Below, in pieces: positions 15,414 to 18,317 of a stretch of DNA of 32,000 nt. The stretch covers positions 1,980,001 to 2,012,000 of the forward strand of contig NC_008340.1 in assembly GCF_000014785.1 (NCBI RefSeq). The letters run 5' to 3'. Under the pieces are notes generated by a model. That model did not search any database and was not told the origin of the DNA. It saw only the letters and a list, made by a program, of their open reading frames with translations. The stretch comes from Alkalilimnicola ehrlichii MLHE-1. GTDB taxonomy: Bacteria > Pseudomonadota > Gammaproteobacteria > Nitrococcales > Halorhodospiraceae. Position 1 is the first letter of the stretch. Each line of letters opens with the position of its first letter. The position numbers and the translations under genes are program-made.

Positions 15414-18317
15414 TCAGGTCTGGTCCCCGTTCTGGTTGAGTGAGGCGAACGCCATCAGATTGTTGCCGATCGCATCGTCCACCGCCGTATGGCGCGCCTC
15501 CAGCCCGGGCCCGATGTGGCCATGGGCCACCAGTTGGTTGCAGAGCAACCACAGGGCCGGCGTATTGCGGCTGTCGTCCTCCAGCGCAACCAGCTGATTA
15601 CCCTGGGCCATAAGGCGGCCGCCAATGAAGCTGGACCGCATGCCGAAGGTGTTCTGGGCGACCGTGAAGATGGCCGGACCGGTCACCGCCCGGGCCAGGA
15701 AGCGCCGATCCCGGTCGTCCACCCGAACGAAGCCGGATTCCATATCGCTGGTCCAGCGCAGTATGAAATTGTTGTTGACGTGAAGGCTGCCCTCGGCGTC
15801 GGCGACGCGGTCCGGCAGCCGCCGGTTCAGGATGGGGTCGCGGATCGGGATGGGGATGGGCCGGACCACCGGGCCTCCGCCGGTCCCCGGCCTGGGCCGG
15901 GGCACATCACCCCCGGTGTCACCTTCCCGATCCCCGTCGGCCACCGGCTCGGGCGTGTCTCCGCTGCGCAGGTCCACATAGTCGATGCGCTGGCTCGCCG
16001 GGTCCACCGGCTTGCCCACCCCATGCCGGTAGCGCACGAGACCGTCGATATGGTTATTCTGGATGTAGGCGACCTGGTAGACCCGCTCCAGCAACAGCGC
16101 CCAGCCCCGATCCACCGGGGTGAGCCGGCAGTCCTCCAGGCGGATAAGCCCAATACCTTCCTTAAGCTGCCCATCGATATGGAGCAGTGGCCGGCGCTGG
16201 CCGCCGCCCCCCTCGGCCTCCCGGGCGAGCACGTGTACCCGCTGGAGGGTAATGTCGTCCCCGCTCAGGTGGACCCGGCTCTCGCCGTCGTCGGGCAGTT
16301 CGATACCGAGATCGAATAGCTGGATCTGCGGTGCCTGCAACGCCCACTCTCCACCCTCCAGGCGGATGCCACAGGCGTGATACCCGCCACCACTGATCCG
16401 GATATGCCGGGCCGTATGCAGCGCCAGGTCCGCGGGGATTTCGTGCACGCCGGGTTTAAGACACAGCCATATGCTCTCCCGCCGCTCTTCGATCAGCACC
16501 TTCAGCGTCCGAGCCAGCTCCCCCGGCTCCACCACCTGCGCGCAGCCGCCACCACCGCTGCGCCCGCAGAGGGTGTTGAGGGCGTCCTGCACCGTCTCCA
16601 CGCCTTCCCGGTCCAGGTCCGGACAGAGTTCGGTCTCGCGGCCCAGGGGGAGGTGATCGGCCGTGGTATCGCAAAGCAACCGGTTGAGCGGTTCCGCGGT
16701 GGTGGTCCGCCCTGCGGGAATCCGCAGCCGCTCGCGCAGGCTGCGGCGGCCATCGCGGCACTCGGGCACGTCGTGGGGCAGCGCCGCGCTGTCCAGGTGA
16801 CAGAGCAAGCCGTCGAGCATGTCCCGCACGCTCAGCCGGCCGTCCCTGTCGATATCCGGCCAACGTTCAGCCAGGGCCTCGGCCAACAGCCGCTTGACCG
16901 TCACCTCCTCCCCCTCGCAATCGGGCAACCGGTAAGCGATGTGCTCGGCGGCGATGTCGCAGAGCGCGTCCAGCGCCTGCTGGACGTTCTCCGCGCCCCG
17001 ATAGAGGGCTTCGCAGCGCTCGCTGAAGCCCACGTCGGCGGCGGCCAGGTCGGTGAGCGGCGGGAAGTTGAAACGGCGGCGCTCCGCGTCGCCGTGCGGC
17101 ACCAGCGCGCCGTCGCCGTCCAGCTCGCCCAAAGGCAGGTAGCGGTGGCGCACCCCGCGGGGCGGTTCGCCGGTATGCTCGTCGCCGAGCACGTAGTCGC
17201 CGGGCCCCTGCACCGCCTCGCGCACCGCCGCCTGCCAGCAGTCACCGGGCAGGAACTGGCGGTCGGCGAAGGCGAGCCGGAGTTCCAGGCGTTCGCCGTT
17301 GACGGCCAGCACACCGGCGTCGATCCCCGCCCAGCCGTGGGCGTCCGGGTCGAGTTCCGGGTCCAGCTCGGCGCCCCGGTCCACGCCGCTGACCAGGGCG
17401 GGCCGGTCCAGGTTGAGCTGAAGAAAGCCGTCCCACTGGCGCACGAACGCCCGCGGCTCCCCCTCCGGGGGGCGCTCGAACGCCGGGGTGAGGCGCCCGC
17501 GCCGGGGCCGGTAGTCCTCCGGGAAATGCCGGCCCAGGGTCCGCTCGCTGGCCTCGTCGAAGAACTCCCAGACCCAGTCGCCGCGGTCGAAGCCCTCCGG
17601 GACGTTATCGGCCTGGTGGGCCTCGGCACCGTTGTCGCGGGACCACTTCAGCACCAGCTGCCGCTCACCCGCCTCGTCCAGGAAAAGGTCGTGCACCTCC
17701 ACCCGGAACAGGTAGTTGCCTATGCGCTCGTCCAGGTTCATCTCGCTGGCGCAGGGGTCGCAGGGGTCATCGCCGACGACGATGTGACGCAGCCGCAGCG
17801 CCAGCGGGGCATCGCCCAGCGGCGGGTTGACCGCCGGGTCGGCGGGGTCCAGCCCGCGCGGGCACCACTTCACCTGCAGCAGGGTCTCGCCCCGGCTGCT
17901 GGTATCGGCGCCGTGCAGCGCCGGATCCATCAGGGCCGGGTCCTCCAGGGCCGTGACCGGACGCTCCCAGACGTCGGCGTAGAGCGTCAGGTCCCGCCCG
18001 TCGAAGGGGGGCGGATCCGGGTAATCGGGCTGCTCCCCCGGCGCCAGCGGCCCGTCGCCGGTCAGCCGGGCGGGGACGCCGCCCACGTAAAGCACGCCGG
18101 GGTGCAGGCGCAGACCGCTGTCGTCCGACAACCGCAGCCCGCCCTCGCGCGGAGCGCCGCTGGCGATGGCATCCCACAGGGCGCCCACCAGCCGGCGCTG
18201 GCCGATCTCGCCGAGGGCGTTCCAGTCGGCGTCGGTGATCATCCGCCCCTGCTGCAGGTAGACGCCGCTGTACTGGCCGTGGTCGCGGTGGGACGGTTGC
18301 GAGGTCTGCGTCTTCAT
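15414..18317 (-). CDS. DUF6519-type protein with C-terminal beta-helix-like region (tail-fibre / receptor-binding slot)
   Basis: ATG 18317 gives MKTQTSQPSHRDHGQYSGVYLQQGRMITDADWNALGE..., the N-terminal signature (YSGV..QQGR...DADWNE) I associate with DUF6519 proteins of tail-like loci. 967 aa. The 1041-nt in-frame upstream extension in the ORF track (to 19358) is Pro/Arg/Gly junk that overlaps the gpI-like gene. Confidence 0.75.
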   Translation of the reverse strand: MKTQTSQPSHRDHGQYSGVYLQQGRMITDADWNALGEIGQRRLVGALWDAIASGAPREGGLRLSDDSGLRLHPGVLYVGGVPARLTGDGPLAPGEQPDYPDPPPFDGRDLTLYADVWERPVTALEDPALMDPALHGADTSSRGETLLQVKWCPRGLDPADPAVNPPLGDAPLALRLRHIVVGDDPCDPCASEMNLDERIGNYLFRVEVHDLFLDEAGERQLVLKWSRDNGAEAHQADNVPEGFDRGDWVWEFFDEASERTLGRHFPEDYRPRRGRLTPAFERPPEGEPRAFVRQWDGFLQLNLDRPALVSGVDRGAELDPELDPDAHGWAGIDAGVLAVNGERLELRLAFADRQFLPGDCWQAAVREAVQGPGDYVLGDEHTGEPPRGVRHRYLPLGELDGDGALVPHGDAERRRFNFPPLTDLAAADVGFSERCEALYRGAENVQQALDALCDIAAEHIAYRLPDCEGEEVTVKRLLAEALAERWPDIDRDGRLSVRDMLDGLLCHLDSAALPHDVPECRDGRRSLRERLRIPAGRTTTAEPLNRLLCDTTADHLPLGRETELCPDLDREGVETVQDALNTLCGRSGGGGCAQVVEPGELARTLKVLIEERRESIWLCLKPGVHEIPADLALHTARHIRISGGGYHACGIRLEGGEWALQAPQIQLFDLGIELPDDGESRVHLSGDDITLQRVHVLAREAEGGGGQRRPLLHIDGQLKEGIGLIRLEDCRLTPVDRGWALLLERVYQVAYIQNNHIDGLVRYRHGVGKPVDPASQRIDYVDLRSGDTPEPVADGDREGDTGGDVPRPRPGTGGGPVVRPIPIPIRDPILNRRLPDRVADAEGSLHVNNNFILRWTSDMESGFVRVDDRDRRFLARAVTGPAIFTVAQNTFGMRSSFIGGRLMAQGNQLVALEDDSRNTPALWLLCNQLVAHGHIGPGLEARHTAVDDAIGNNLMAFASLNQNGDQT
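16533..17030 (-). repeat. Four tandem Cys-paired modules of about 45 aa inside the DUF6519 protein
   Basis: Residues about 430-595 contain four modules: VQQALDALCD...PDCEG, VRDMLDGLLCH...PECRDG, PLNRLLCD...ELCPD and VQDALNTLCG...GGGGC. Each is an L-x-x-L-C helix-like motif followed 8-16 residues later by a second Cys. Confidence 0.55.

Follow-up and report, generated by a model that had tools for sequence, protein, structure and literature searches.

A DUF6519 protein of Alkalilimnicola ehrlichii as the probable target-binding fibre of its phage-tail-like toxin injector

Which component of a phage-tail-like toxin injector (eCIS) selects the target cell, and is that component encoded by the long gene that follows the baseplate genes in Alkalilimnicola ehrlichii MLHE-1? 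The 32,000-nt stretch of contig NC_008340.1 analysed here (hereafter the window, in whose numbering all coordinates are given) holds this gene as a complete coding sequence at 15414..18317 on the minus strand (967 aa plus a stop codon), with the ATG at 18317 and the stop codon at 15414–15416. A plus-strand reading of 15414–18317 was ruled out by stops in its translation. Conservation of M1 and K2 at 90% or more in the family consensus supports the start at 18317, and every sequence string quoted in an earlier, sequence-only reading of this DNA was found in its place in the minus-strand translation; YSGVYLQQGRMITDADWN forms residues 16–33. The product matches the A. ehrlichii MLHE-1 DUF6519 protein at every residue (100% identity), and sequence searches found at least 540 homologs of the whole protein. 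PHROGs and NCBIfam contained no family for it, a whole-family profile retrieved nothing significant among the sequences of solved structures, and tblastn of the whole protein against 50,697 phage genomes (E ≤ 0.01) gave no match. The AlphaFold (AF2) model, with a mean pLDDT of 82.6 and values above 90 in the body and β-helix, is composed from N to C terminus of an anchor, a β-rich body, helical cysteine modules and a β-helix of about 11 rungs with a disordered loop. The sequence-only reading had named the protein the target-recognition component, and fold, repeats, C-terminal variability, gene position and the literature on the eBAP5 fibre class lend this computational support. We consider it likely that the gene encodes the target-binding tail fibre of the A. 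ehrlichii eCIS and that this fibre is of the eBAP5/DUF6519 class.

The genetic setting is that of an eCIS. The locus comprises genes for Pvc16_N, an AAA ATPase, CIS_tube, a LysM-like protein, gpD-like and gpV-like proteins, gp25, two Baseplate_J proteins, Tail_P2_I, the fibre and a DUF4157 toxin; the fibre gene thus lies downstream of Tail_P2_I in the company of the markers Pvc16_N, CIS_tube and DUF4157, and the remainder of the locus (sheath, tube) falls outside the window. The fibre presumably docks on the Tail_P2_I-like wedge protein, which is encoded immediately upstream at 18353..20104 on the minus strand, separated from the fibre gene by 35 nt; because relatives of the wedge protein are 563 aa long, the true start of its gene probably lies later. 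Downstream, 11043..15389 on the minus strand encodes a protein with eCIS_core (DUF4157) and Endonuclease_NS_2 domains, the presumed payload, and in relatives this DUF4157-nuclease gene likewise follows that of the fibre. The same gene order was found in all five related loci examined, from Thalassomonas, Variovorax, Alkalispirillum and metagenomes. The fibre gene had been described as directly following a gpI-like wedge gene, which holds here and in the related loci, where Tail_P2_I precedes it in five of five; likewise, the window contains no other fibre-like gene, as had been claimed, and the genes further downstream are housekeeping genes. P2 gpH and R-type pyocin fibres are encoded in this slot as well, next to the gpI-type wedge gene and following it (gene order J-I-H in P2), but neither fibre nor collar nor repeat domains of P2 were detected in the A. 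ehrlichii protein, which differs from them in both anchor and distal fold. The adenovirus-like fibres Afp13 and Pvc13 (eBAP1) have the same presumed eCIS role; these, however, combine a helical anchor of ~50 aa with a β-spiral shaft and bind Afp12 or Pvc12, whereas the A. ehrlichii locus uses Tail_P2_I. The A. ehrlichii protein shows no such secondary structure, and no adenovirus fibre appeared among its Foldseek matches.

The N-terminal baseplate-anchor region (residues 1–180; 17778..18317, minus strand) places the protein in a known class. Its description as DUF6519-type was borne out by a match to Pfam DUF6519 (PF20129) that, at 44.1 bits (E = 1.5e-11), exceeds the cutoff of 22.4 and is limited to residues 110–179 and profile positions 132–195 of 593; the homologs align to profile positions 1 to about 175. 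In the work of Nachmias et al. (Nat Commun 2026, PMC12923769), DUF6519 already figures as eBAP5, a baseplate-anchor domain of eCIS fibres found in 658 genes and paired with a Tail_P2_I adaptor, so the A. ehrlichii fibre belongs to a published class, the assignment of which is itself computational. Fibres of this class often end in pectin-lyase β-helices (PMC12923769), and the A. ehrlichii protein resembles them in its DUF6519 anchor, its slot next to Tail_P2_I, its β-rich insertion or body, its pectin-lyase-like β-helix and its fast-evolving distal part. It differs in that its match to the Pfam profile is confined to the initial third, and in its distribution, since eBAP5 was reported mainly from actinobacteria whereas the present clade is proteobacterial and extends to Desulfobacterota, Acidobacteriota and Verrucomicrobiota.

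A second, more distant relationship may connect the anchor with a solved structure. Residues 1–50, which include a long helix at 27–50/53, are modelled with low pLDDT. Compared with the PDB, the model of the N-terminal 600 aa came closest to chain 9eui_Q of the phage 812 baseplate (weak Foldseek E = 1.7e-4, TM 0.15; low TM-scores are expected for a multi-domain query, which is not proof of relationship). The sequence deposited for this chain bears the name 'DUF4815 domain-containing protein' and represents the tripod protein of phage 812. In hhalign, the N termini of the fibre and the tripod protein aligned as profiles along the initial ~130 residues with 76% probability (E = 2.2e-5, fibre residues 2–132, 120 columns). 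Pfam DUF4815 itself had no match in the fibre protein, and homologs scored 14–27.6 bits, under the cutoff of 30. These data are suggestive of remote homology between the two N termini. The tripod protein (9EUF/9EUI/9EUJ; EMBO J 2026, PMC13433997) is a trimer at the baseplate periphery, docked on loops of a scaffold protein, and bears domains with a putative role in receptor binding, putatively of carbohydrates. It differs from the fibre in belonging to a phage rather than an eCIS, in sequence (identity about 12–25%) and in its distal domains, which are CBM-like sandwiches as against the cysteine modules and β-helix of the A. ehrlichii protein. The body that follows the anchor (residues 181–420; 17058..17777, minus strand) is modelled as all-β domains, mostly at pLDDT above 90. 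It contains a C186-x-x-C189 motif that is invariant in the family, as are many other body columns, and H135, C186 and C189 are a possible candidate for a metal site.

Strong conservation of the N-terminal 600 aa also suits a different role, in which the protein would be a purely structural, TssK-like baseplate part serving assembly or triggering and its C terminus would have no part in recognition. Nachmias et al. report that eBAP3 resembles TssK, that Tail_P2_I resembles TssG and that eBAP3–5 share a 'shoulder' with TssK/RBP-type proteins (PMC12923769). When the N-terminal model was compared with the PDB, however, neither TssK nor tCIS-crown structures ranked among the first 50 hits, and the window holds no T6SS genes. 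The distribution of variability weighs further against such a role. As the sequence-only reading had anticipated for a receptor-binding domain, the C terminus is hypervariable: family-wide identity is 0.43–0.58 over residues 1–592 and 0.18–0.21 over the β-helix. In the ortholog from Alkalispirillum mobile, residues 1–592 are 89–98% identical to the A. ehrlichii protein and the β-helix 41–47%, with the drop at about residue 600 confined to the distal domain; the genes flanking the ortholog are 82–97% identical. In other genomes, residues 1–453 are kept and are followed by unrelated C-terminal architectures, so that the end of the first cysteine module (residue 453) is the junction at which the whole C-terminal architecture is replaced. 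An exhaustive search of 1.84 billion protein representatives found eight relatives of the C-terminal domain at E ≤ 1e-3. A purely structural part would show neither the drop nor the replacement, and we regard this role as very unlikely. A conserved N terminus joined to a variable distal β-helix is the pattern of eBAP5 fibres.

The β-helix-like character proposed for the C terminus was supported by AlphaFold, which predicts with high confidence a β-helix over residues ~594–967 rather than a globular, enzyme-only fold. The first part (residues 593–783; 15969..16541, minus strand) starts with a cap helix at 601–610 bracketed by C592 and C619. The second part (residues 837–967; 15417..15809, minus strand), delimited by AF2 and alignment, bears an Asn ladder of N889 and N907; the N934 of the family is replaced by His in the A. 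ehrlichii protein. Regular three-strand rungs extend over 615–959 at pLDDT above 90, and the five β-like segments quoted in the sequence-only reading fall within residues 639–855. The acidic, Gly/Pro-rich stretch which that reading took for a linker is present at 784–816, but it is part of a disordered loop within the β-helix (pLDDT below 50 at 792–831). By pLDDT, column occupancy and composition this Pro/Gly/Arg/Asp-rich loop covers residues 784–836 (15810..15968, minus strand), and it is specific to the clade, being present in the closest relatives only (column occupancy 0.12–0.20).

All but one of the best 50 PDB matches of the full model are β-helix proteins, the exception being the phage 812 baseplate chain at rank 12. 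For the β-helix, the best matches are the AlgE4 and AlgE6 epimerases, the HK620, Depo32 and phi29 gp12 tailspikes and pectin methylesterases, with Foldseek E of 7e-3 to 0.1, identities of 6–12% and probabilities of up to 0.98. The likeness consists of a predicted right-handed parallel β-helix of ~11 rungs that is capped by a helix at its N-terminal end and has a ladder of Asn residues; the A. ehrlichii helix differs from tailspikes and CASH-type proteins in being interrupted by a disordered insertion of ~50 residues and in having no sequence similarity to them and no identifiable catalytic residues. The top structural matches are enzymes (the mannuronan C-5 epimerases AlgE4 and AlgE6, alginate epimerase/lyase, pectin methylesterases, the HK620 endoglycosidase, Klebsiella Depo32), so that the β-helix might act as a depolymerase or modifier of a surface or matrix polysaccharide, a variant that would refine the fibre role and is compatible with it. 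Besides the weak E values (≥7e-3) and low identities, what speaks against this variant is that the isolated β-helix had no match in Pfam, that no sequence match to Pfam, NCBIfam or PDB enzyme families was found, and that most conserved positions hold Leu, Gly, Ala or Asn of a structural kind. Where the wider family has the charged residues K636, E664, E668 and R701, the A. ehrlichii protein has A, Q, F and A, and its β-helix retains no Asp or Glu that is conserved in the family alignment. We therefore hold an enzymatic β-helix to be unlikely and keep to the reading of a target-binding fibre.

Between body and β-helix lie four cysteine-paired modules, all on the minus strand: module A (residues 424–453; 16959..17048), of the short type, with the pair C435–C453 and ending in VQQALDALC; module B (454–506; 16800..16958), of the long type, with C467–C506; module C (507–549; 16671..16799), also long, with C520–C549; and module D (550–584; 16566..16670), short, with C565–C584. 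The motif VQxALDxL may be common in phage tail fibres. The LxxLC motifs ALDALCD (448–454), LDGLLCH (501–507), LNRLLCD (544–550) and ALNTLCG (579–585) had been read as each opening a pair with a second cysteine 8–16 residues further on. Those cysteines are present (467, 520, 565 and 592), but the register of pairing was wrong: each module spans from its first cysteine to LxxLC, and because the two cysteines within a module are lost or replaced together in homologs, the cysteine 8–16 residues after each LxxLC is that of the next unit. Co-variation gives the pairs 435–453, 467–506, 520–549, 565–584 and 592–619. The idea of paired, stabilizing cysteines is thus strengthened by their joint loss, with the pairs placed inside the modules. 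Repeat-aware profile comparison related A to D (90% probability, E = 2e-7) and B to C (95.6%, E = 4.5e-9), and the segment after module D, used as a control, scored nothing; at the level of sequence profiles, this confirms that the four modules are related beyond chance.

Among 120 homologs, the module cysteines are 77–99% conserved, except C520, which aligns poorly, and the number of cysteines within residues 421–625 is even in 110 of the 120, ranging from 6 to 14. Copy number varies, with three to six pairs in close homologs, and near-identical module repeats occur in Geobacter and Acidobacteriota. The block may be a short strand and a helix closed by one disulfide, able to duplicate in tandem. 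In module B, a loop with the EF-hand pattern (PROSITE PS00018), DIDRDGRLSVRDM at 488–500, sits between predicted helices 474–485 and 497–507; Pfam EF-hand does not match it, and the full pattern is kept in just 7 of 120 homologs. Searches for similar modules elsewhere were negative: a 31-position module profile found nothing among sequences of solved structures, Pfam nothing on the module region alone, tblastn of the module region no match in 50,697 phage genomes (E ≤ 10), and a two-unit profile nothing significant in a database of 5.8 billion proteins. In the published account of eBAP5, the shafts are macroglobulin-like and there is no mention of cysteines or disulfides (PMC12923769), in contrast to the array of cysteine-paired helical modules between body and β-helix here. 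This array, variable in copy number, is a modest new detail of the A. ehrlichii fibre and the only undescribed one.

Within the proposed mechanism, the chemistry of the pairs affects a single step. Disulfides do not normally arise in the cytoplasm, in which the protein is produced, and the module cysteines could instead be ligands of Zn, Fe or a similar metal, perhaps shared across the chains of a trimer. The phage T4 fibres gp12 and gp37 carry metal sites on the three-fold axis, and the fibre protein has its invariant CxxC at 186–189. Two cysteines per module, however, do not suffice for a tetrahedral site within one chain, the homolog alignment shows no conserved His or extra Cys alongside the modules, and strict pairwise gain and loss is the classic signature of disulfides. 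Metal coordination by the modules thus seems improbable.

The ten conserved, paired cysteines, which we take to be more typical of extracellular proteins, also bear on where the particle acts. A cytoplasmic or membrane-anchored CIS, of the Streptomyces or cyanobacterial tCIS type, could use the protein to tether the particle inside its producer: the tCIS 'crown' protein (eBAP4), which has a shoulder-like feature, anchors the CIS in this way (PMC12923769), and no lysis or release cassette was seen in the window. The protein, however, lacks any hydrophobic segment (maximum Kyte–Doolittle hydropathy 0.88 as a 19-residue mean), the hypervariability of its distal domain is in keeping with an arms race or a part in host range, and Streptomyces-type cytoplasmic CIS are described as fibreless. 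We judge an internal tether to be the most improbable of these roles, and return to the target-binding fibre, with which the lack of a transmembrane segment and of a signal peptide agrees.

By analogy, the N-terminal ~180 residues, and probably the body to ~420 as well, would trimerize and dock on loops of the Tail_P2_I-like wedge protein at the baseplate periphery; docking of fibre anchors on Tail_P2_I loops is a prediction of Nachmias et al. (PMC12923769). The four modules, which contain helices and are closed by one cysteine pair apiece, would form a stalk that spaces the distal domain from the baseplate, and the fifth pair would staple the β-helix cap. Co-variation reveals the pairs, and disulfides seem the most likely chemistry; because the particle is assembled in the reducing cytoplasm, they could form only after release. 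On the basis of the model, the right-handed β-helix would bind a polymer of the target-cell surface, probably a polysaccharide, and so set the host range. In contractile systems, receptor binding is relayed through the baseplate to sheath contraction and payload delivery; here, binding would be relayed in the same way and deliver the DUF4157-nuclease encoded downstream. Specificity would evolve by replacement of everything distal to the modules.

It is conceivable, though we would not expect it, that the modules are at once an undescribed fibre block, a redox-gated maturation switch and a recombination joint at the end of module A. Were this so, the stalk would stiffen only on being both released and oxidized, which could prevent premature triggering inside the producer, and the VQxALDxLC that ends module A would be a joint for swapping receptor-binding cassettes.

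Beyond the 2026 catalogue (PMC12923769), the biological addition made here is little; the A. ehrlichii protein exemplifies cleanly eBAP5, which of all fibre classes has been studied least. Work is under way to engineer eCIS particles into programmable devices for protein delivery, and their target is set by the fibre. For the docking of such fibres on baseplate loops, the solved tripod protein of phage 812, as a suggested remote relative, offers a structural template. The protein consists of three separable parts, a conserved anchor up to residues 453–592, a length-variable stalk of cysteine modules and a swappable β-helix, and the natural junctions mapped here indicate cut points for chimeras.

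The 967-aa DUF6519 protein that the sequence-only reading had placed at 15414–18317 is encoded exactly between these coordinates, but on the minus strand, where the open reading frame starts with an ATG at 18317 and ends with a stop codon at 15414–15416; a plus-strand reading was ruled out by the many stops in its translation. All of the strings quoted in that reading were present in the protein at the places given. The G+C content of the window is ~70%, and the fibre reading frame continues open upstream to 19358 (minus strand). Despite this longer open frame, ATG 18317 was taken as the start because at least 90% of homologs share residues M1 and K2 and the upstream Tail_P2_I-like wedge gene (18353–20104, minus strand) ends at 18353. 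In sequence the fibre protein is 100% identical to a protein of Alkalilimnicola ehrlichii MLHE-1 named 'DUF6519 domain-containing protein', and no hydrophobic segment was found in it. It belongs to an already known class: Nachmias et al. (Nat Commun 2026, PMC12923769) defined five eCIS fibre anchor domains, of which DUF6519 is eBAP5, found in 658 genes, predicted to dock onto loops of the Tail_P2_I-type protein and frequently carrying macroglobulin-like shafts. The target-recognition role proposed earlier for the fibre agrees with this classification, which is wholly computational. That paper (PMC12923769) makes no mention of cysteines or disulfides, and no publication about an Alkalilimnicola eCIS turned up in a literature search.

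On the minus strand, the genes of the window run in the order Pvc16_N, AAA ATPase, a small ORF, CIS_tube-like, LysM/tail-X-like, gpD-like hub, gpV spike, gp25, two Baseplate_J paralogues, Tail_P2_I-like, fibre and toxin. This order, with Tail_P2_I, DUF6519 and eCIS_core at its end, is shared by loci of Thalassomonas, Variovorax and Alkalispirillum and by two contigs from metagenomes. The window holds no further fibre candidate, as had been claimed. The toxin gene (11043–15389, minus strand), which follows the fibre gene, encodes the likely payload, an eCIS_core (DUF4157) protein of 1,448 aa whose C-terminal domain is Endonuclease_NS_2. It is followed by a 125-aa ORF (10656–11033, minus strand) with no Pfam match and 89–90% conservation in the two closest loci, a candidate immunity protein; below 10.6 kb are housekeeping genes (PhoU, Na/Pi cotransporter, M20 peptidase and others). 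The two consecutive Baseplate_J/TIGR02243-like genes (20041–23118 and 23003–24187, minus strand; ~1000 and ~394 aa) overlap by 116 nt when ORF starts are listed mechanically, and relatives indicate that both the large one (984–1004 aa) and the Tail_P2_I gene (563 aa, not 583) start later. The Pvc16_N (cap-like) and AAA ATPase genes (27784–30152, minus strand) lie upstream of the baseplate genes, an order conserved in relatives, whereas in Afp/PVC they stand at the operon end. Genes for the sheath and tube must be located past position 32000, outside the window.

Pfam DUF6519 matched the fibre protein significantly (44.1 bits; cutoff 22.4) over a short N-terminal stretch only; in homologs the match covers profile positions 1 to ~175 of 593, with DUF4815 also matching, below threshold, over the first ~130 residues. 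An AlphaFold2 model of the monomer, built with 120 homologs (mean pLDDT 82.6), comprises an N-terminus of low confidence that includes a long helix (residues 27–50), a confident all-beta body (51–410) and a module region (420–590) containing helices, with pLDDT of 60–80 in the full model and 80–95 when residues 1–600 were modelled alone. Comparison of the N-terminal 600-aa model with the PDB gave a sole hit below 1e-3, phage 812 baseplate chain 9eui_Q (E 1.7e-4). The phage protein was identified by translating the corresponding phage gene and searching the PDB with that sequence, which matched the 1,152-aa 'DUF4815 domain-containing protein' (ORF65) in 9EUF, 9EUI and 9EUJ. Gene order and modelled chain lengths identify it as the tripod protein; the assignment of 9eui_Q to ORF65 rests on modelled chain lengths rather than direct chain lookup. 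Profile-to-sequence comparison also aligned the tripod protein with the fibre (76% probability, E 2.2e-5, residues 2–132 versus 6–126), and BFVD matches included DUF4815 proteins (E 0.03–0.05) and, at E 2.6e-4, a tail/RBP protein from a Lactobacillus phage. We read the relation as probably real but remote, as confined to the anchor region, and not as family membership. Two loops with pLDDT <50 in the monomer model hold residues invariant in the 120 homologs, C186-P-x-C189 (17751–17762, minus strand) and H135, G136, A137, D138 and T139 (loop 131–142), and may form a metal site or a trimer or docking interface of the anchor–body region.

Repeat-aware profile–profile comparison bore out the relation among the four proposed Cys modules, A–D (residues 424–453, 454–506, 507–549 and 550–584), and separated two subtypes: A resembles D (90% probability, E 2e-7) and B resembles C (95.6%, E 4.5e-9), the A–B and C–D similarities are weaker, and a control segment after the modules gave no score. 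Each unit runs from a short strand (AxDVGF or LPY-type) through a Cys and a variable loop to a helix ending V-Q-x-A-L-D-x-L-(L)-C; searched by sequence, it had no match in Pfam or the PDB. Across the 120 homologs these Cys and those near the beta-helix cap rank among the most conserved residues (Cys 435, 453, 565, 584, 592 and 619 at least 96%; Cys 467, 506 and 549 77–87%). The number of Cys in residues 421–625 is even (6, 8, 10, 12 or 14) in 110 of them, module B lacks its first Cys in 16, in which the helix-end Cys is Leu, Phe or Tyr, and an extra module in the Variovorax/Ideonella group lacks both; the even counts, the joint loss and the module lacking both Cys show that pairing is within modules (435–453, 467–506, 520–549 and 565–584). 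Because C453 is retained where C467 is lost, the register suggested earlier, LxxLC with the next Cys, is wrong, although the pairing itself stands. A further pair, 592–619, flanks the cap helix of the beta-helix. We consider disulfides more likely than metal ligands for these pairs. Residues 488–500 of module B (16818–16856, minus strand; DIDRDGRLSVRDM) are an exact match to the PROSITE pattern for EF-hand loops, with a predicted helix on either side; the full pattern is kept in only 7 of the 120 homologs and DxDxDG in about half. This pattern is probably behind the UniRef name 'EF-hand domain-containing protein', and the stalk may have a Ca2+ site in this loop. The array varies in copy number, with 3–6 pairs in close homologs and 4–6 short, near-identical tandem modules in Geobacter and an Acidobacteriota MAG; the ~30-aa modules at ~420–590 in the latter's locus L054 and in L042 of Geobacter hydrogenophilus (for example, AIEASDIAFTDNCPKLFDGADNLQTALDNLC) indicate recent tandem duplication.

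The C-terminus, previously described as beta-helix-like, is predicted by AlphaFold2 as a cap helix (601–610) and a confident beta-helix of ~11 rungs extending to residue 959. PDB matches to the full model were almost exclusively right-handed beta-helix proteins, at weak E-values (7e-3 to ~0.1): AlgE4/AlgE6 mannuronan epimerases, alginate epimerase/lyase, HK620 tailspike, Depo32, phi29 gp12 and pectin methylesterases. The acidic, Gly/Pro-rich 'linker' is not inter-domain; it is a disordered loop inside the beta-helix (792–831, pLDDT <50), an insertion confined to the closest relatives (column occupancy 0.12–0.20). Conserved beta-helix columns are mainly structural Leu, Gly, Ala or Asn, and the family-conserved K636, E664, E668 and R701 are not retained in the A. 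ehrlichii protein, so we see in these positions no basis for calling the domain an enzyme.

Mean identity of the 120 homologs to the A. ehrlichii query falls from 0.58 (residues 1–50) and 0.53 (51–420) to 0.43 in the modules and 0.21 and 0.18 in the two beta-helix halves. The Alkalispirillum mobile ortholog is 89–98% identical over residues 1–592, drops near residue 600 and stays at 20–50% to the end, and all neighbouring genes, including the toxin, are 82–97% identical; the C-terminus is hypervariable relative to the N-terminus, as anticipated. When 1.84 billion representatives were scanned exhaustively with HMMER, the C-terminal domain had only 8 relatives (E<=1e-3), against at least 540 for the whole protein, and a genome scan found relatives encoded in 161 species. 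Module A ends at residue 453, and exactly there many of the genome-scan alignments break off; beyond this point the proteins (1450–1510 aa in total) have an unrelated architecture. This second form (loci L049, L053, L060, L069, L070, L075, L076, L079, L080 and L086; gene start ~4001) retains the anchor plus a single Cys module, followed by 'RDLRWHNKHLHGWGIVCGL..C' and ~1000 residues with repeats such as 'TYGGTDNTINVYD...EMPSAEGAE', in which no Pfam domain was found except a weak C-terminal HHH_5 match. Such replacement of the distal end is the modular evolution expected of a receptor-binding protein.

Together, these results confirm what the sequence-only reading observed and support its interpretation, with the Cys register corrected; we consider it probable that the fibre is a trimeric, loop-docked, tailspike-like receptor-binding protein. 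Of this picture, the analysis shows the fold, the mosaicism and the synteny, and the trimer, the docking, the disulfides and the ligand are inferred. To the known eBAP5 class they add an array of Cys-paired modules with its register and variable copy number, a junction at residue 453, a clade-specific disordered loop and a probable remote link between the anchor and the solved tripod protein of phage 812.
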